The notes under the pieces were generated by a model, which saw only the letters and a list, made by a program, of their open reading frames with translations, had not been told where the DNA came from and did no database searches. Positions 41,579 through 51,165 of a stretch of 64,000 bases of DNA are shown here, one piece after another (within the stretch, counting starts at the first letter, position 1; each line of letters opens with the position of its first letter). The DNA lies in sequence record NZ_CP041047.1. The stretch is one strand, 5' to 3'. Made by a program: the position numbers and the translations under genes. The DNA comes from a plasmid.

Positions 41579-41968
41579 TCAGGCAAACTCAGGTGCATGA
41601 AGGGAAATATGGTGAGCATGAGGCTCTTCACATTTTAATAGTACGGCATATACCTTTTTTAACTCTTCCATATTTTCATGAAGAAAAGCTCTCAGATTTT
41701 CTTCCGAGTCCAGTAGCTCGAGACACTGGGGATGTGTCATATTGGTTAACTCAGGATGATGGTGAGATAATCGTTTTCCGGGAAGATAACCGGAGGTGAC
41801 ATGATGTAATGTCGCTGCTTTAATGTCTGATTTCTTCGCCACGGAAAGAAGATGCTGCGCCAGTTGGGGAGCTAGTAATCTGTGCCAAAAACGTCTGGCA
41901 CTGGCTTTAGATGCGACTGGAAAATATAATCTTAAAGCGGCTAAAGTCTGGACTGCATCTGCACTCAT
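41579..41968 (-). CDS. hypothetical protein translationally coupled to eriC-F
   Basis: 129 aa, start overlaps eriC-F stop. Confidence 0.45.
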   Translation of the reverse strand: MSADAVQTLAALRLYFPVASKASARRFWHRLLAPQLAQHLLSVAKKSDIKAATLHHVTSGYLPGKRLSHHHPELTNMTHPQCLELLDSEENLRAFLHENMEELKKVYAVLLKCEEPHAHHISLHAPEFA

Positions 41969-43338
41969 TTAGAACTCTCCATTGTGACTTCTTTGTCTTT
42001 TTTCGGTTGGATTTTTATTTCATTTTCTTCACTTGATAACGCGAAAGATTTCTTCCTGCGAACAGCAGAAATTTCAGAAATGCGTAGCTCAGACGGAACA
42101 AGTGTACGGTATCGGCGGCTTTTGGCATGACCGACTCGCTGGGCATGATAAATCCCGGTATGTCCTGAAAAAAGATATGCCGTAAAGCAGCCGACGGCAG
42201 AAAATACCGCCATTTCGGTACCGAACAGTTCCATCGCCATAAAGGTTGTCGCAAGCGGGGTATTTGCCGCACCGGCAAACACAGCTACAAAACCTATCCC
42301 GGCCATAAAAGCAAATGGCATGTGCAGAAGAGGAGCGAGAGCATTCCCCAGAGTGGCACCAATGTAAAACAGAGGTGTGACCTCACCACCTTTAAATCCT
42401 GTCGCCAGAGAAACGATGGTAAAGCTCATTTTTCCCATAAAATCCATCGGATATAGCGGTTCTTTAAAGGCTCGGACAATTTCCGGAATACCGAGACCAA
42501 TATAACGGTCAGTACCGATAAACCAGACGGCGGCAGCAATCAGTATCCCTCCGAAAAAAGGACGCAAAGGAGCATATTTAATGTAACGTTTAACGATCCC
42601 ACTAGCCTTTCCGGTCGCGACAGAGAATACCATTCCTGCCAGCCCGAATACGGCACCCGCTATCACAACGGACAGGAAACTCCATATAGTAAATGCCGGG
42701 ATGAAATCGATGCGGTAATGTGTGTGATGTACCCCCCATGCCAGACAGACCTGATCGGCAAGCACTGCGGCAACCAGACAGGGGAACAGCGCGTCATAAC
42801 GAATTCGCCCTATTGCCAGTACTTCCATCCCAAAGATAGCACCGGCCATCGGGGTACCGAATACTGACGAAAAGCCCGCGCTCATCCCAGCCATCAGCAG
42901 TATCCGACGAGCGTCTTTCTTCACTTTAAACATATGCGTCAACTGATCGGCCAGGGCTCCCCCCATCTGAACCGCCGTCCCTTCGCGCCCTACCGAAGCG
43001 CCAAACAGATGCGACATGAGGGTACCGCCCAGAACCAGTGGCACCATCCTTATCGGAACCACCTTTCTCGGATCGTGTATCTCATCGATAATCAGGTTAT
43101 TGCCAGCGTTGACGGGCTCGCCATACCAGCTGTAAACCAGTCCGACCAGGAGACCTGCCAGTGGAAGCAACCATATCATCCAGGAATGGGATTCCCGCCA
43201 TGCTGTGGCATTATCGAGTGAGAGCAGAAATACCGCGGATGCAGTACCTGCCAGTAATGCGATAAGACTCGCAGTAACTAACCATGCCCCTATATAGGAA
43301 AATAATTCAATTTGATCGTGGTGTTTTAGTCGTTTCAT
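41965..43338 (-). CDS. eriC-F: CLC-F fluoride/proton antiporter
   Basis: CLC-F signatures GNNLI and GREGT (instead of GSGIP/GKEGP), GTPMAG; true start ATG 43338 (AGGA RBS); fluoride riboswitch upstream. Confidence 0.85.
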   Translation of the reverse strand: MKRLKHHDQIELFSYIGAWLVTASLIALLAGTASAVFLLSLDNATAWRESHSWMIWLLPLAGLLVGLVYSWYGEPVNAGNNLIIDEIHDPRKVVPIRMVPLVLGGTLMSHLFGASVGREGTAVQMGGALADQLTHMFKVKKDARRILLMAGMSAGFSSVFGTPMAGAIFGMEVLAIGRIRYDALFPCLVAAVLADQVCLAWGVHHTHYRIDFIPAFTIWSFLSVVIAGAVFGLAGMVFSVATGKASGIVKRYIKYAPLRPFFGGILIAAAVWFIGTDRYIGLGIPEIVRAFKEPLYPMDFMGKMSFTIVSLATGFKGGEVTPLFYIGATLGNALAPLLHMPFAFMAGIGFVAVFAGAANTPLATTFMAMELFGTEMAVFSAVGCFTAYLFSGHTGIYHAQRVGHAKSRRYRTLVPSELRISEISAVRRKKSFALSSEENEIKIQPKKDKEVTMESSK

Positions 43339-43380
43339 TGGTCCTGGCTCGTGAGTTTCAGGGCTGACCAATGGGGAGTG

Positions 43381-43424
43381 CAGAAAATAGCCTACAGTAC
43401 CGACAAAGGTCAGTGTTCTGTAGG
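43381..43424 (-). terminator. riboswitch expression-platform terminator
   Basis: CCUACAG...CUGUAGG stem sharing the aptamer 3' CCUAC, followed by CUAUUUUCUG. Confidence 0.65.
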
Positions 43425-43473
43425 CGTCATTAACTGTCAGAAAACAGTGGTTATAAGGAGGAACGCCATCTCC
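43420..43473 (-). promoter_or_regulatory. fluoride riboswitch (crcB motif) aptamer
   Basis: RNA GGAGAUGGCGUUCCUCC-UUAUAAC-CACUGU...ACAGU-UAAUGACGCCUAC matches consensus GGnGAUGGnGUUCnCC...UAAUGAnnCCUAC; pseudoknot GGCGU/ACGCC; TATAGT -10 about 7 nt upstream. Confidence 0.85.
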
Positions 43474-43694
43474 GCCGGGCACTATACCTGTTCTGCCCAA
43501 CGTTGACCATGATTTTTCCTGCTTCGCCTGCGGAATTAGCCTCCCCTCATTCGCAAAACCGTAACGGATCGCCGGAAAATGGAGTGTTCCGCAGATTGTC
43601 TGCCAGTGAAATATTATTCAGGATAGACAGACCAAGATACAGGAAATGAAGATGACAGTTTTTAAATATTGCCACTGCCATCTCCCACCCATCA

Positions 43695-44273
43695 TTAAAT
43701 TTTGAATAATTTTAAGCTGATTGTTTTAAAAAAAGAGAATACATATTCACCTTTATATTTCCATAACCGGCAGAAAAGAGCATTAGACACCATCCCCGTG
43801 ATGACACCTCCTATCATATCGAGAGGAAAATGTACGCCAAGATAAATACGTGACCAGGCGACCAGAATACTAATGCCCAACACCACCAGGCCGGTACGTA
43901 CTGCCTTTGCGCTGATCAGCGCAAGCGCAAAACACACAAAAATGGTCATATGATCACTCGGGAATGAGTAATCTGCCGTATGCGAAAACCAGACATAGCC
44001 CAGCGGAACCATAAATGGTCTTGGATGCGGCCAGAAGGTTCCAATAATCAGGCTCAACACTACACCAATGACCATTGTTAACGTTGAGCGAAGCGCCAGT
44101 ATCTTTCCTTTTTCTTTACCGGCAAACCATAAAAAAATAATAATAAATGGTATGGCATAAATAAGGGTATTCGCAAAAAAATTCGCAATAACCAGAGCTG
44201 AATCAGGCGTTCCAGGCTTAGCGTTCATAGCAAGGAAAATTTTTCTGTTCAGAGTTTCAATTTCATTCAGCAT
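43695..44273 (-). CDS. PAP2-family lipid phosphatase (PgpB/YbjG-like)
   Basis: PAP2 motifs PHPRPF, FPSDHM, SRIYLGVHFPLD; six TM helices. Confidence 0.7.
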   Translation of the reverse strand: MLNEIETLNRKIFLAMNAKPGTPDSALVIANFFANTLIYAIPFIIIFLWFAGKEKGKILALRSTLTMVIGVVLSLIIGTFWPHPRPFMVPLGYVWFSHTADYSFPSDHMTIFVCFALALISAKAVRTGLVVLGISILVAWSRIYLGVHFPLDMIGGVITGMVSNALFCRLWKYKGEYVFSFFKTISLKLFKI

Positions 44274-44497
44274 AAATGTTAATTACCCAGAAAAAAGAAG
44301 CATAATACTGCCTGATTCTTAATATTCACTTAAGAAAAATCCATGATGGCTGGCAGATCCCCCCAGATTCTCACCGTTCATTCTCGCTGAAGCCCTGGAG
44401 GGATAGGATGACACCGCGCGTAAGGAATAACCTACACAACAGAGAACAATAATTGATATTGATTTATTGCAACGGTCCATATAAGATTGATCAACAA

Positions 44498-44565
44498 GGT
44501 GATGGTGCTCCACCTTACCCAACCGCCGGTTTCTTTAAAAACCGGATGATGACGCCTGATATACA
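44498..44565 (+). promoter_or_regulatory. fluoride riboswitch (crcB motif) aptamer
   Basis: GGUGAUGGUGCUCCACC-UUACCCAAC-CGCCGG(loop)CCGG-AUGAUGACGCCUGAU; P1 GGUG/CACC; 3' CCUGAUAUACA can pair with UGUAUGUCAGG spanning the start codon. Confidence 0.7.
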
Positions 44566-44592
44566 GTTGAATTAGTCCTTTTATAGGCATGT

Positions 44593-45570
44593 ATGTCAGG
44601 TATCGCTATGAAAAATCAAACCACATTACCGCTTACCTCAGAATCTCTCTCTTTTCAAAGAGATAATCCAATCCATGTCTTCGGTCATCGAAATCCTGAC
44701 AGCGATGCTATCTGCAGCGCGCTGGTTGTGGCTGACTGGCTTAATTACACTGGTCGTCCCGCAACGCCCTGGCGCCTGGGGGATATCACCCCGGAAACCC
44801 GTTACATCCTCAATGTCGCGGGTGTTTCACAACCTGATTTACTCACCGCCGACTTGACTGATAAAACCGTATGGCTGGTTGATTTTACGGATGCGGAGCA
44901 GGGACCATCCTCGTTGATGGACAGCAACGTCATCGGCATCATTGACCATCATCGTATTGGCACCCTCATTACCCGCAATCCACCGGATGTCTGGGTGCGG
45001 GCGGTAGGATGCTGCGGAACCGTAATTCTCTCAATTCTGATGCATGACATTCCGATGCCGATTACGGCATCTCAGGCAGTGTTGCTGATGGGGGCGATCC
45101 TCAGTGATACCGTTGCGCTGACTGGCCCCACCACCACCACTCAGGATCAGGAAGCCGTGGCAGTTTTGCGTGAAATCGCCGGTATCGATTATGACCAGTT
45201 TGTGACAGGGCTACTGCGTGCCAAAACAGATATAACCGGGCAATCCACATCGGTATTACTCAATCGTGACGCCAAAAATTACCGGATCCATGATGTGCCG
45301 CTGTTGTTGTCACAAATTGAGGTACGCGACATGGCTGATATTACTCCCCTGTTGCCCGCGCTGCTGCAGGAAATGGATAAAACCTGTAAAGACAGTTCGC
45401 TGGACATGGTTATTTTGATGGTGACAGACATCACCAACCGGAACTCCGTTTTACTTTTTTCAGATAGCAGCCTGACAGGCTCTCTCCAGATGTCGCTGCC
45501 CGGTATGACAAGCCGGAAGAAAGAAATCCTGCCCTGGCTGACCGACCACTTCGCTTCTTATAAGAGGTGA
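44593..45570 (+). CDS. ppaC: DHH-family II (Mn-dependent) inorganic pyrophosphatase-like phosphoesterase
   Basis: DHH motifs HRNPDSDAICSA, GIIDHHRIG; 325 aa. Confidence 0.7.
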   Translation: MSGIAMKNQTTLPLTSESLSFQRDNPIHVFGHRNPDSDAICSALVVADWLNYTGRPATPWRLGDITPETRYILNVAGVSQPDLLTADLTDKTVWLVDFTDAEQGPSSLMDSNVIGIIDHHRIGTLITRNPPDVWVRAVGCCGTVILSILMHDIPMPITASQAVLLMGAILSDTVALTGPTTTTQDQEAVAVLREIAGIDYDQFVTGLLRAKTDITGQSTSVLLNRDAKNYRIHDVPLLLSQIEVRDMADITPLLPALLQEMDKTCKDSSLDMVILMVTDITNRNSVLLFSDSSLTGSLQMSLPGMTSRKKEILPWLTDHFASYKR

Positions 45571-45573
45571 TTT

Positions 45574-46002
45574 ATGCAAATTTACCGGCATGCCTTATTA
45601 CTTGTACAGAATGAAACCGATGGTCTGCTGTTGCTTGAGCAGGCAGAACGTCTGGCAAAAGAGATGGGCACCCGTATTACTGTCGGCCATCTCAGCGCTG
45701 ACTACCGGGAACTGGATTATACCAGTGATTCATTAACTAAAGATCGCCAGTCACACGAAGTTATTGATGCAAAGGCAATGCTGAGCCGTCTGGTGGAGTC
45801 CAGCAGTATTGATATCAAAGTCAGGTCCATCGTCAGTATCCATCGTTTCCGGGACGTCGAAGCCGTTGTTCAGCACGAAGATATTGATCTGGTCATGCTG
45901 GGGCATAAAAACCGCCTGTTCGGGGTTTTTTCTTCCTACTCTTTCGAATTTATCAATCACCTTTCTGTTGATGTTTTGATTAAACACATTCCAACCCCAT
46001 AA
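45574..46002 (+). CDS. usp: universal stress protein family
   Basis: 142 aa UspA fold, VMLGHKNR. Confidence 0.7.
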   Translation: MQIYRHALLLVQNETDGLLLLEQAERLAKEMGTRITVGHLSADYRELDYTSDSLTKDRQSHEVIDAKAMLSRLVESSSIDIKVRSIVSIHRFRDVEAVVQHEDIDLVMLGHKNRLFGVFSSYSFEFINHLSVDVLIKHIPTP

Positions 46003-47304
<1,302 letters not shown>

Positions 47305-47313
47305 TTCCGTCAC

Positions 47314-47343
47314 CCTTCCCGTATGCTTAGCTACGGGAAGGGG
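47314..47343 (+). other. strong RNA hairpin after eno without U tract
   Basis: CCCTTCCCGTA-loop-TACGGGAAGGG. Confidence 0.4.
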
Positions 47344-47355
47344 TAAGGTGATCCT

Positions 47356-47550
47356 ATGAACGGAAAAATACTCATACTGTCAACAGCAACGGGGATCCTG
47401 GCAACCTGTCTGGTTTTCCTGATCGCCGATGTCTTTTTTAACGTACTGCCAGATGATACCAGCGCTGTTGTAATCGCGCTGTTCATCGGGAGCTGCACCC
47501 ATCTTCTGATGCGCCACCTCCTTGACCGGAGCCCAGGTAAATTCAGGTAA
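47356..47550 (+). CDS. small two-TM membrane protein inside fluoride operon
   Basis: 64 aa, AAGGTGA RBS. Confidence 0.35.
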   Translation: MNGKILILSTATGILATCLVFLIADVFFNVLPDDTSAVVIALFIGSCTHLLMRHLLDRSPGKFR

Positions 47551-47622: not shown

Positions 47623-48309
47623 ATGGGAAAAATTATTTTACTCCGCCATGGAGAGAGTCAGTGGAATCAGCAAAATCGTTTTACCGGATGGGAAGATGTT
47701 CCGCTGACGCAGAAAGGAGTGGAGGAAGCCCGGCGCGCAGCAAACCTGATAAAACGGTCGGGGATCATCATTGATGGTGCCTGCACATCCGTTCTGAATC
47801 GGGCAATTCATTCACTCTGGCTGATAATGGAAACGCTGAATCAATTGTGGTTACCGGTGGACAAATCATGGCGGTTAAATGAACGCCATTACGGTGCGCT
47901 TCAGGGAATGAATAAGGATGAAGCCGCTCAACAAATTGGCCAGAATATCGTTTATCACTGGCGGAGGAGCTATCGTGGCATCCCTCCTCCGTTGCTGGAT
48001 GCGCCTGCTTTACTTCATCGTGAGGCACGTTATCGCCATGTGTCCCTGACGGACCTACCGGCGGGTGAAAGTCTGGAAATGACGCAGCGAAGGCTGCTGC
48101 CTTACTGGCACCACGTCATTGTCCCGCGTGTTGCCAGTGGTGAAACCATGCTGCTGGTCAGTCATGCTAATGCATTGCGTGCGCTAACCATGTTTATTGA
48201 GCAGATTGATGAGAACAAGGTTCCCGATCTGCATGTCCTGACGGGTATCCCCGTACTGTATGAAATGAATGAAAATCGGGCCATCACCGCACGTTATTCC
48301 CTTGAATGA
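47623..48309 (+). CDS. gpmA: 2,3-bisphosphoglycerate-dependent phosphoglycerate mutase (GpmA-like)
   Basis: LLRHGESQWN catalytic motif, WLPVDKSWRLNERHYGALQG. Confidence 0.8.
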   Translation: MGKIILLRHGESQWNQQNRFTGWEDVPLTQKGVEEARRAANLIKRSGIIIDGACTSVLNRAIHSLWLIMETLNQLWLPVDKSWRLNERHYGALQGMNKDEAAQQIGQNIVYHWRRSYRGIPPPLLDAPALLHREARYRHVSLTDLPAGESLEMTQRRLLPYWHHVIVPRVASGETMLLVSHANALRALTMFIEQIDENKVPDLHVLTGIPVLYEMNENRAITARYSLE

Positions 48310-48343: not shown

Positions 48344-48718
48344 ATGTACAAATCATTATTCGCGGTAGTGATAGGCGGCTCGATCGGCTGTGTGATCCGC
48401 TGGATACTGTCCATGCGTCTCAATGCACTTTTCCCCAATCTTCCACCTGGCACCCTGGTGGTTAATCTGGTTGGCGGATTTATCATCGGTATGGCACTGG
48501 CCTTCTTTGTCCGGCAGCCTCACCTCGATCCCGCCTGGAAGTTTTTTATTACCACCGGCTTATGCGGCGGTATGACCACCTTTTCCACTTTTTCAGCTGA
48601 GGTGGTAGTTCTACTTCAGAATGGCAATTATGCATGGGCTGTCATTTCCGTACTGACGCACGTAACTGGCTCGCTTTTGATGACTGCAGCCGGTTTTTTT
48701 GTAATGACACTGTTGTAA
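48344..48718 (+). CDS. crcB: fluoride channel CrcB/Fluc
   Basis: 124 aa, GGFIIG...CGGMTTFSTF motifs. Confidence 0.9.
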   Translation: MYKSLFAVVIGGSIGCVIRWILSMRLNALFPNLPPGTLVVNLVGGFIIGMALAFFVRQPHLDPAWKFFITTGLCGGMTTFSTFSAEVVVLLQNGNYAWAVISVLTHVTGSLLMTAAGFFVMTLL

Positions 48719-48791: not shown

Positions 48792-48814
48792 CTGACCTGC
48801 CGGGTCAGTTTTTT
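48792..48814 (+). terminator. intrinsic terminator / attenuator immediately upstream of P-type ATPase RBS
   Basis: CTGACC-tgccg-GGTCAG followed by TTTTTT, 15 nt before ATPase ATG. Confidence 0.6.
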
Positions 48815-48828
48815 CCGGAGAAGGATGT

Positions 48829-51165
48829 ATGGAGATGACCCCTGAGAATAACGTGAAGGGACTTTCCGAAGCCGAGGTGCAGGCCAGGCTGGTGCAATAT
48901 GGCTATAACGAAGTACGTGAACAGCCTCCGGGCCAGCTGCGTACGATCCTCAAACGTCTGTGGGGCCCCATCCCCTGGATGCTCGAAATTGCGCTGGTAC
49001 TCGAAGTGGCTCTGGGAAAGACGGTTGAACCCGCCATCATTGCAGGATGGCTCGCTTTCAGTGCGGTCCTTGGCGGCATTCAGGAACGGCGGGCACAGTC
49101 AGCACTTGACCTGCTGCGTAGTCGGCTGAAAGTTAATACCAGTGTATGCCGTGATGGCACCTGGCGCCAGATACCGGCCCGAGGGCTTGTCCCCGGTGAC
49201 TTTATCGTCTTAACGGCGGGGAACCTGGTCCCTGCCGACTGTATGATTGATGAGGGAGTCGTGGATGTTGACCAGGCAGCCCTGACCGGGGAGTCGACCC
49301 AGGAGTCACACAACAAGGGTGATACTCTCTATTCAGGATCGACGATTACACGCGGTAAGGCGACAGGAACCGTCACCGCCACCGGTACCCGAAGCTACTT
49401 TGGGCGTACGGCAGAGCTGGTACGAACGGCCAGCTCTGCCAGCCATCTTGAACAGCTTCTGTTCGCTGTTGTGCGCTATCTTGTGACCATTGACGCCGTG
49501 CTTGCGGTCATTCTGGCCGTTGTTGCACTCTGGCGCGGTGAAGATTTGTTGCCCCTCGTCCCCTTTTTTCTTGTTCTCATTATTGCGACCGTCCCGGTGA
49601 CAATGCCGGCAGCCTTTACGGTCGCCAATGCAGTGGAAGCCCGGCGACTGGCGAATCAGGGGGTACTTGTCACCGGCCTGTCAGCGGTACAGGAAGCGGC
49701 AACCATGGATGTGCTGTGTATCGACAAAACCGGTACACTGACCAGAAACCAGCAGTCAGTTGCCGGCATAACGGCGCTTCCGGGAGAGAATGAGGACGAG
49801 GTACTGGCCTGGGCTGCCGCAGCCTGCGACGAAACGATGCAGGGGCAACTTGAGATGGCGATTCTGGATGCGTTACGACGCCGGGGGGGAATGCCGCACA
49901 TCCGTGAGCAATTCATCCCGTTCGATCCTGCCACGAAACGTTCCGAAGCCCGTGTGTGTTCAGACAATGACGGATCGTCCGTTCACGTCATTCTGGGTTC
50001 ACCGATGGTCGTTGCATCACTCGCCGAATCTCCTCCTGAGTTCACCACGATCCAGCAGGCCATGGCGGCGTCCGGCGCCAGGATCCTGGCAGTCGCAACC
50101 GGCACCGACGGCCATCTCCGTATCCGAGGGTTGCTGGCACTAGCCGATACACTACGCGATGATGCCGCAGCCCTCGTCAGGGATATCCGGGCACTGGGTA
50201 TCAGGATAATCATGGTCACCGGTGATACGGTTGATACCGCCAGAGTTATCAGCCGCCAGGCAGGACTCGGTGACCGCTTCGGCGATGCAGCCAGGGACCT
50301 GCAGGCACCTCTCCACTTTGATGGTTTTGCTAACTTCTATCCGGAGGAAAAATTCCGTCTGGTGCAGTCCCTGCAACAAACGGGCTGTATAGTCGGCATG
50401 ACGGGTGACGGTGTGAATGATGCGCCGGCACTGAAACAAGCCGGAGTGGGCATTGCCGTACAAACAGCGTCTGACGTGGCAAAAGCAGCTGCTCAGGTGG
50501 TATTGACCCACCCCGGGTTAGACGGTGTTGCCGCCGTCGTATCAGGGGGCCGCTGTGTGTTTCGCCGTATGCTGACCTGGACAATAACGAAAATAGCCCG
50601 GACCGTTGAGCTGGCGGCCCTGCTGACCATCGGCTATATCGCGACAGGATTCTTCGTCACACCGCTGGTTCTGATTGCCGTGATTGTGGTTCTCAATGAT
50701 GTGGTGACCATCACGCTGGCGACAGACCGGTCATGGATTTCTTCATCACCGGAAAGATGGAACGTTGGTGAAATTGCCAGGCTGGGAGGTGTCCTGGCCG
50801 CAGGCTGGCTGGTTCTGGCATTCATTATCCTGTGGTTCGTCCTTACCAGGTTGCAGCTTCCCGTCCCACAAATCCAGGCCCTGATGTTCGCCTATCTGAT
50901 GTATACGGCCCAGATGACGATTTATCTTTCACGAACGCCGGGCCGCTGCTGGTCACTCCGGCCGGGCCGGTTTGTTGTGTTGGCCACGGTGGGCAATATC
51001 ATCATTGCCACCGTACTGGCTGCCGGTGGTTTTCTTATGACGCCGGTTTCACTGACACTGCTGGTCATCATGTTTGCTCTGGTTTTGCTGGCCACCCTTC
51101 TGCTCGATCAGATCAAGATATGGCTCTTCGCCAGAAGACCTGTTGAGGACTCACCGAAAAGCTGA
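48829..51165 (+). CDS. P-type cation-transporting ATPase (type III H+/Mg2+-like)
   Basis: DKTGTLT phosphorylation site, MVTGD, GDGVNDAPAL; 778 aa. Confidence 0.8.
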   Translation: MEMTPENNVKGLSEAEVQARLVQYGYNEVREQPPGQLRTILKRLWGPIPWMLEIALVLEVALGKTVEPAIIAGWLAFSAVLGGIQERRAQSALDLLRSRLKVNTSVCRDGTWRQIPARGLVPGDFIVLTAGNLVPADCMIDEGVVDVDQAALTGESTQESHNKGDTLYSGSTITRGKATGTVTATGTRSYFGRTAELVRTASSASHLEQLLFAVVRYLVTIDAVLAVILAVVALWRGEDLLPLVPFFLVLIIATVPVTMPAAFTVANAVEARRLANQGVLVTGLSAVQEAATMDVLCIDKTGTLTRNQQSVAGITALPGENEDEVLAWAAAACDETMQGQLEMAILDALRRRGGMPHIREQFIPFDPATKRSEARVCSDNDGSSVHVILGSPMVVASLAESPPEFTTIQQAMAASGARILAVATGTDGHLRIRGLLALADTLRDDAAALVRDIRALGIRIIMVTGDTVDTARVISRQAGLGDRFGDAARDLQAPLHFDGFANFYPEEKFRLVQSLQQTGCIVGMTGDGVNDAPALKQAGVGIAVQTASDVAKAAAQVVLTHPGLDGVAAVVSGGRCVFRRMLTWTITKIARTVELAALLTIGYIATGFFVTPLVLIAVIVVLNDVVTITLATDRSWISSSPERWNVGEIARLGGVLAAGWLVLAFIILWFVLTRLQLPVPQIQALMFAYLMYTAQMTIYLSRTPGRCWSLRPGRFVVLATVGNIIIATVLAAGGFLMTPVSLTLLVIMFALVLLATLLLDQIKIWLFARRPVEDSPKS

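Follow-up and report, generated by a model that had tools for sequence, protein, structure and literature searches.

The stretch analysed here, referred to below as the window, comprises 64,000 nt of a plasmid (sequence record NZ_CP041047.1); positions are those of the window, on the strand shown unless marked as minus. At 44489-44565 (+) it contains a fluoride riboswitch of the crcB-motif family, which lies upstream of ppaC, the first gene of the series ppaC-usp-eno-gpmA-crcB. We consider it probable that this riboswitch turns on a plasmid-borne operon, ppaC-usp-eno-(small open reading frame)-gpmA-crcB, and possibly a distal ATPase gene as well, by means of a hairpin that sequesters the Shine-Dalgarno (SD) sequence at the head of ppaC.

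The whole window was scanned with cmscan against all Rfam families. Only two matches exceeded the gathering score, and both were to the fluoride riboswitch family RF01734, for which that score is 34 bits. The match at 44489-44565 (+) reached 43.4 bits (E = 1e-8) and covered all of model positions 1-64; the other copy, at 43482-43414 on the minus strand, scored 48.1 bits. The Prokaryotic Genome Annotation Pipeline (PGAP) annotates a riboswitch at the same coordinates on a 100%-identical plasmid. The original prediction, made from the sequence alone, had placed a second fluoride riboswitch upstream of ppaC and proposed a search with the RF01734 covariance model; the search found it, and the strings quoted in that prediction, GGUGAUGGUGCUCCACC (44498-44514), AUGAUGACGCCUGAU (44546-44560), CCUGAUAUACA (44555-44565) and UGUAUGUCAGG (44590-44600), lie where they had been placed. 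The aptamer heads a set of fluoride-toxicity genes, ppaC-usp-eno-gpmA-crcB. By every sequence-level criterion that could be applied, the element at 44489-44565 is a genuine fluoride riboswitch and a member of RF01734.

A homologous operon, ppaC-uspA-eno-gpmA-crcB-orf5249, resides on genomic island GI3 of Enterobacter cloacae FRM. The searched sections of the report on that strain (Liu et al. 2017, Sci Rep 7:6786, PMC5533749) give lengths of 963, 429 and 1287 bp for ppaC, uspA and eno, describe orf5249 as a 261-bp ATPase fragment, and place Rfam RF01734 upstream of ppaC. In the presence of fluoride, mRNA levels of ppaC, uspA and eno rose 166-, 121- and 177-fold, and those of gpmA, crcB and orf5249 rose 10-, 8- and 15-fold. 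Reverse transcription-PCR (RT-PCR) showed co-transcription, with two transcripts, and gene knockouts showed that the genes jointly confer fluoride resistance (PMC5533749). An expression-platform analysis was not found in the searched sections. The window shares with FRM the gene order, the lengths of 963, 429 and 1287 bp, the 3-nt and 15-nt spacers between the first three genes, and RF01734 before ppaC. In our comparisons the FRM genome (CP019889) was represented by a proxy, island L133 on an E. coli chromosome, which matches FRM in its gene lengths and in its neighbours: a 213-bp gene upstream, a 261-bp ATPase fragment and a gene of 3060 bp for a resistance-nodulation-division (RND) pump. This island is ∼93% identical to the window locus; the hairpin strands, the SD sequence and the ATG are identical. 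Fluoride induction of the homologous FRM operon suggests, indirectly and by analogy, that the aptamer at 44489-44565 binds fluoride and activates the genes downstream.

For comparative work, we assembled a first set of leaders from ppaC-homologue loci of Citrobacter, Celerinatantimonas, Hafnia, Rosenbergiella, Rouxiella, Serratia, an E. coli IncF plasmid and an E. hormaechei plasmid, and a second set of 118 metagenomic loci with the same aptamer subtype. In the window, helix P1 is formed by 44498-44501 with 44511-44514, P2 by 44526-44532 with 44539-44545, and the pseudoknot, as read from the Rfam alignment, by GGUG (44504-44507) with CGCC (44553-44556). Across 36 relatives these three helices are 97% paired, versus 38-50% when the partners are slid as a control. 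P1 is paired in all 36 but is invariant; P2 is 93% paired, with six of its seven pairs changing on both sides; and the four pseudoknot pairs GGUG/CGCC are paired in every sequence.

A fifth pseudoknot pair (44508/44552) is a C·A mismatch in the window, while most relatives have U:A and the FRM-like island (tail GGCGCC) has C:G. This mismatch, along with the score of 43.4 bits for this copy versus 48.1 bits for the first, could mean that the aptamer is decaying and that, in this plasmid, the operon is constitutive or expressed from internal promoters. We find such a scenario scarcely credible. The score is well over the gathering cut-off, and the same C·A combination is present in five other independent natural sequences (L043, L055, L061, L070 and L116). 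All remaining conserved positions are intact, as are the promoter, the hairpin and the SD sequence, and the locus is 100% identical on plasmids of Klebsiella, Citrobacter and E. coli. Furthermore, a promoter scan of the + strand between 44600 and 48700 found no promoter-like site, and hence none before eno, gpmA or crcB, where the original prediction had said that independent promoters would count against it; this result is weak evidence that the genes in the window are co-transcribed from the promoter at the riboswitch. Judging from the aligned sequences, position 44508/44552 looks like a covarying pair caught in an intermediate state.

We then folded the leader in silico. The segment 44489-44625 (137 nt) folds at -38.2 kcal/mol, compared to -26.5 ± 3.5 kcal/mol for dinucleotide shuffles (z = -3.4), and none of 200 shuffles folds as well. 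Both the minimum-energy and the centroid structures (z = -3.4 and -3.2) contain a 12-bp hairpin, whose 5′ strand is GCCUGAUAUACA (44554-44565) and whose 3′ strand is UGUAUGUCAGGU (44590-44601). The latter strand holds an ATG (44593-44595) and the SD sequence AGG(U) (44598-44601). The near-complementarity of the aptamer tail to this downstream segment had been pointed out in the original prediction, and RNA folding suggested as a check; CCUGAUAUACA and UGUAUGUCAGG form 11 consecutive pairs, 10 Watson-Crick and one U·G, which folding extends to 12. By reference to the Rfam alignment, G44554, C44555 and C44556 serve both the 5′ strand of the hairpin and the 3′ strand of the pseudoknot. In isolation the hairpin has a predicted stability of -16.5 kcal/mol, which drops to -8.6 kcal/mol once the GCC/GGU pairs are removed.

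The hairpin mostly stays paired among relatives. Its 12 pairs are 92% paired in the 36-sequence alignment, compared to 18-52% in partner-slid controls. Pair 44564:44591 changes from C:G to U:A in four sequences, three further pairs change on one side and remain paired, several of the changes preserving a wobble pair, and a single sequence has a U·C mismatch. Among the unique metagenomic relatives of the aptamer, each of the 66 has, within 60 nt, a segment complementary to the tail plus 6 nt (at least 9 of 12 positions), and the variable extension of the hairpin shows A-U, G-C and G-U alternatives.

To approximate the two states of the switch, we folded the platform alone, with or without the shared GCC, for 35 leaders. 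This proxy replaced a hard-constraint fold of the full fluoride-bound leader, which gave spurious pairing of the SD GG to the aptamer linker or to 44632-36. With the tail free, the SD sequence has a predicted probability of 0.00 of being unpaired in every one of the 35 leaders; withholding the tail raises the median to 0.43, with a value of 0.28 for the window. For the ATG at 44608, the corresponding probability is 0.7-0.8 in both states.

Which start codon is regulated bears directly on how the hairpin works. The original prediction took the ATG inside the hairpin (44593) to be the ppaC start and proposed that the start codon itself is sequestered. The sequestering hairpin stands, but what it hides is the SD sequence of a second ATG, at 44608, which is mostly unpaired in either state. 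PGAP starts the DHHA2 coding sequence at 44608 on a 100%-identical plasmid. The gene, ppaC (44608-45570, +), encodes a family II (DHH/DHHA2) Mn-dependent inorganic pyrophosphatase. Matches of the product to NCBIfam NF003877 (283 bits) and to Pfam DHH and DHHA2 all begin at residue 22 of this frame, the first 21 residues being a non-conserved N-terminal extension, and between 44608 and the conserved domain there is no other in-frame ATG, GTG or TTG. The arrangement (A/G)GG-N7-ATG, in which the ATG corresponds to 44608, is kept in 35 of 35 related leaders. On these sequence comparisons, the regulated start is ATG 44608, and the hairpin hides AGG 44598-600, its SD sequence.

Initiation at 44593, with the start codon itself buried, has several features in its favour. 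This ATG is the first of the open frame, is in frame with 44608, has an AGG (44585-87) 5 nt upstream, is fully paired in the ligand-free fold, and has an equivalent in most relatives. We nonetheless regard it as distinctly unlikely. The equivalent ATG is lost in three leaders (L003, L004 and L010), while all 35 leaders keep the motif leading to 44608, and the conservation of this ATG elsewhere is explained by pairing with the tail. The constant 15-nt in-frame distance between 44593 and 44608 follows from the fixed SD spacing. PGAP and the FRM annotation agree on 44608, the 963-bp length reported for FRM ppaC implying the equivalent start. Finally, ATG 44593 remains buried when the pseudoknot is formed (probability unpaired, 0.001-0.2), so that it could hardly be switched. 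As the main start, ATG 44593 is rejected by the comparison of related leaders; minor use is possible.

The sequence 3′ of the hairpin is AUCGCUAUGAAAAAUC. It contains no U-run, and a terminator scan found no terminator-like site in the leader (44489-44610). The lack of a U-run makes the platform translational in type, and our data support its assignment as an SD-sequestering hairpin. The missing U-run is informative because sister sequences have the same hairpin with a U-run.

The switch might instead be primarily transcriptional, either with the tail hairpin as an intrinsic terminator or through direct, translation-independent Rho termination in the leader. Consistent with this, FRM mRNA changes ∼100-fold (PMC5533749), the same aptamer subfamily has hairpin-plus-U-run terminators in four loci (L028, L030, L046 and L049), the first riboswitch of the window has a terminator-like platform, and a C-rich, G-poor stretch follows ATG 44608. 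We consider a primarily transcriptional switch unlikely. An intrinsic terminator in the leader is ruled out by the absence of both a U-run and a scan match. An invariant SD sequence sits in the 3′ strand of the hairpin, at an invariant distance from an invariant ATG, an arrangement that a pure terminator would not need. In addition, it is common for enterobacterial translational riboswitches to alter mRNA levels by way of Rho or decay. Because the hairpin lacks a U-run, the ∼100-fold mRNA induction in FRM is most likely a secondary effect; a platform acting on translation alone would not account for it.

Fluoride riboswitches that act on translation through a sequestering hairpin form a recognised class, which includes P. 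syringae eriC and a B. pseudomallei example (translational controls in PMC12667848). Like these, the switch in the window is predicted to be an ON switch, in which a non-terminator hairpin draws on some of the same bases as the 3′ strand of the pseudoknot. In architecture it differs from them in that the hairpin is long (12 bp), only three bases overlap the pseudoknot, and the start lies in a leader or N-terminal extension, outside the conserved protein body; the sequences and host genes also differ. In transcriptional fluoride riboswitches, such as those of B. cereus crcB and T. petrophila, the platform hairpin has the 3′ strand of the pseudoknot at its base (PMC11077080). The aptamer and the mutual exclusion of pseudoknot and hairpin are the same as in the window. 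However, their hairpin is followed by a U-run and terminates transcription, whereas the hairpin in the window is followed by an SD spacer and an ATG.

We also considered how translation might be coupled to mRNA level. In the 78 nt after ATG 44608 the C/G ratio is 3.1, and it is 2.6-3.1 for 78-nt windows at 44600-44620, compared to a median of 0.95 and a 95th percentile of 1.5 over the operon. This bias is the composition expected of a Rho-loading site, and the segment is a candidate for one. Bastet and colleagues, writing in Nucleic Acids Research in 2017, reportedly described enterobacterial riboswitches that couple translation control to Rho-dependent termination. By analogy, the switch in the window would resemble these in its SD sequestration, its C-rich and G-poor early coding region, and the large mRNA changes without an intrinsic terminator. 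Those examples are turned OFF by their ligand, whereas this one would be turned ON.

In the mechanism that we favour, a promoter abutting the aptamer would start the RNA at ∼44494. In the absence of fluoride, the tail GCCUGAUAUACA would pair with UGUAUGUCAGGU, burying AGG 44598-600 and excluding ribosomes from ATG 44608. Fluoride would lock the GGUG/CGCC pseudoknot, at the expense of the three closing pairs of the hairpin, leaving the latter ∼8 kcal/mol weaker; the GG of the SD sequence would be freed, and translation would begin from 44608. When the leader is untranslated, its C-rich, G-poor segment 44600-44700 might be exposed to Rho, or to RNA decay, and a strong hairpin after eno (47313-42) would attenuate the distal genes ∼10-fold. 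Ribosome exclusion, the involvement of Rho and the role of the eno hairpin are steps that we infer.

Several points, in addition to the mismatched fifth pseudoknot pair, weigh against this picture. It is built on sequence, folding and homology to FRM, and the FRM data are mRNA levels, which, taken alone, fit transcriptional and translational control equally. The covariation seen in the hairpin is thin, amounting to one compensatory pair in four related sequences, probably a single event, and the 5′ strand CCUGAU was fixed by the search pattern and the 3′ motif partly by a filter. Nearest-neighbour folding models neither the pseudoknot nor co-transcriptional kinetics. Even once the pseudoknot is in place, the hairpin retains 9 bp that can pair (-8.6 kcal/mol), covering the A of AGG and ATG 44593, and because this remainder persists, the predicted opening of the SD sequence is only partial (0.28 in the window, 0.08 in L116). 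Lastly, C/G is only 1.0-1.6 in lineages that carry a separate leader open reading frame (see below), such that the Rho step is not obviously conserved.

The promoter that would drive the operon is predicted just upstream of the aptamer. An inferred sigma-70 promoter (44459-44487, +) consists of a -35 element TTGATT (44459-64), a 17-nt spacer and a -10 element TAAGAT (44482-87), which ends 10 nt 5′ of P1. The consensus promoter scan did not flag this site, which scores 8/12. In 35 related leaders, hexamers of the form TTGnnn and TAnnnT occur at a constant distance from P1 despite differing sequences, two examples being TTGCGT-17-TACAGT and TTGCAC-17-TATGAT. The pattern points to a transcription start at ∼44494, 4 nt before P1.

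Downstream of ppaC, the operon continues on the + strand with a universal stress protein gene (usp, 45574-46002), which starts 3 nt after ppaC and was identified by open reading frame (ORF), PGAP and profile match, and with the enolase gene eno (46018-47304; ORF and PGAP), 15 nt after usp. Directly after the eno stop codon lies a GC-rich 11-bp hairpin (47313-47342) without a U-run; the segment 47300-47365 folds at -29.5 kcal/mol (z = -4.5). The hairpin is kept in the FRM-like island, and it is here that FRM mRNA falls ∼10-fold. It is a candidate for a partial terminator, a 3′-end stabiliser, or the 3′ end of the shorter of the two FRM transcripts, ppaC-usp-eno.

The 312-nt gap between eno and the gpmA-like gene holds a small ORF of 64 codons (47356-47550, +), preceded by a strong SD sequence, TAAGGTGAT; two hydrophobic segments can be discerned in its product by eye. 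PGAP did not call this ORF on the identical plasmid, calling instead a 45-aa ORF on the opposite strand. In tblastn searches, the 64-aa product shows 58-95% amino-acid identity in seven related loci, with substitutions mostly at third codon positions and with the upstream SD motifs conserved. A database search returned eight protein clusters, the names given all being 'hypothetical protein', and a profile search found no Pfam or NCBIfam match. Two loci carry a disrupted copy of the ORF: L002 has a stop codon in it, and the FRM-like island has lost 1 nt.

The gpmA-like mutase gene (47623-48309, +) and the fluoride channel gene crcB (48344-48718, +), both supported by ORF, PGAP and profile match, complete the series. 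The terminator after crcB noted in the original prediction is present, as the hairpin CUGACCUGCCGGGUCAG (48792-48808) followed by UUUUUU (feature 48792-48814, +; terminator scan). The further claim of one long operon ending there holds in part. The riboswitch does head ppaC-usp-eno-gpmA-crcB, but FRM has two transcripts, a ∼10-fold step-down after eno, and transcription beyond crcB. In the window, the ATG of a 778-aa P-type ATPase gene (48829-51165, +) lies 14 nt after the U-run; its product is proton-pump-like (type IIIA), matching TIGR01647 at 607 bits, just below the 615.5-bit cut-off. This ATPase, the full-length counterpart of FRM orf5249, may be a distal member of the operon, reached by read-through, and the crcB-distal hairpin, instead of closing the operon, could act as an attenuator within the leader of the ATPase gene. 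The U-run reads UUUUUU in the window and GUAUUU in the FRM-like island (L133 8845-8890), a break that may, on sequence grounds, explain read-through into orf5249 in FRM. Just 5′ of this hairpin there is a weak promoter-like site, GTGCCA-17-TATTAT (48745-73). The window thus differs from FRM in its full-length ATPase (778 aa versus a 261-bp fragment) and, with the FRM-like island as the point of comparison, in having an unbroken UUUUUU behind the crcB hairpin and an undisrupted small ORF in the gap between eno and gpmA. The window copy is also plasmid-borne, and next to it lie a PAP2 gene and a second riboswitch-eriC(F) unit in divergent orientation.

In 13 unique related leaders, the conserved start opens not ppaC itself, but an upstream ORF of 21-22 codons, the peptide of which is not conserved. 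The carriers include L013 (4117-4180), L007-L010, L014, L022, L023, L027, L035, L039 and L129. The TGA of this leader ORF overlaps the ppaC ATG (ATGA), and leader ORFs of the L013 type cross a CACCUU/AAGGUG hairpin that covers ppaC's own SD sequence. Elsewhere, including the window, L002 and Celerinatantimonas, this start is joined in frame to PpaC, giving an extension of 17-25 residues. A remnant inverted repeat, AUCUCU/AGAGAU, is seen at 44643-44664 of the window, within the leader region 44608-44673. One could imagine that the output of the switch is leader translation, which would unlock ppaC and at the same time shield a C-rich Rho-loading site, hence the 100-fold mRNA response. Such a leader-ORF/Rho variant of the fluoride riboswitch is a tentative idea, which we think could well prove wrong.

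Locus L013, the leader of which is 78% identical to that of the window, is the E. coli IncF plasmid pEC244_2, where the module adjoins sitCD, genes of the sit iron/manganese transporter. A shorter module (riboswitch, leader ORF, ppaC, usp, eno and crcB, without gpmA) is present in L013 and about 18 other E. coli plasmids. For the ppaC homologues (57-58% identity) of Rahnella (L005 and L006) and Providencia (L011), no RF01734 match was found within 6 kb on either side, and these loci did not enter the leader comparison; hence, not every member of the ppaC clade is under riboswitch control.

On the minus strand beside the operon lie a PAP2 phosphatase gene (43695-44273), the first riboswitch, a ClC-type (eriC-F-like) channel gene (41965-43338), a DUF190 gene and a HAD hydrolase gene. 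The first riboswitch (43320-43482, -) has a terminator-like platform, in which the tail GCCUACAG pairs with CUGUAGGC, followed by UAUUUUCU; a second hairpin covers the SD sequence and the ATG at 43338, and a -10-like TATAGT ends at 43481, a few bases before P1. More broadly, the aptamer subtype with P1 GGUG/CACC and tail GCCUGAU (L015-L132) is joined to at least three platform designs: a hairpin with SD sequence and ATG, as in the window; a hairpin with a U-run, forming clear terminators (L028, L030, L046 and L049); and, in L019 and others, a longer multi-helix relay in which GUAUGUCAGG can pair with the tail or with downstream CCUGUGUAC, and the ppaC start is distant.

A 5.6-kb stretch of the locus recurs with 100% identity on large plasmids of Klebsiella, Citrobacter and E. 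coli; on further plasmids, from Salmonella, Citrobacter, Klebsiella and Enterobacter, the identity is 93-96%. There are 51 matching plasmids, most of them predicted to be conjugative. On one of the 100%-identical plasmids, E. coli p027_SK3a, PGAP annotates both riboswitches at the same coordinates.

The riboswitch and its operon are already known, given the PGAP annotation on identical plasmids and the characterisation of the FRM operon in 2017, and the original prediction is essentially right about them; the part of the finding that had been left to work out was the expression platform. The locus represents a fluoride-resistance module carried on large, mostly predicted conjugative plasmids of Klebsiella, Citrobacter, Enterobacter, Salmonella and E. 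coli, with a related copy on E. coli IncF plasmids. To this our analysis adds which start is regulated, an SD-sequestering platform with a three-base overlap with the pseudoknot, the opening of a coupled leader ORF by the same start in sister lineages, a 64-aa gene that annotation had missed, and an eno-distal hairpin that would explain the step-down after eno. These additions could guide dissection of the switch or its engineering as an enterobacterial fluoride sensor.

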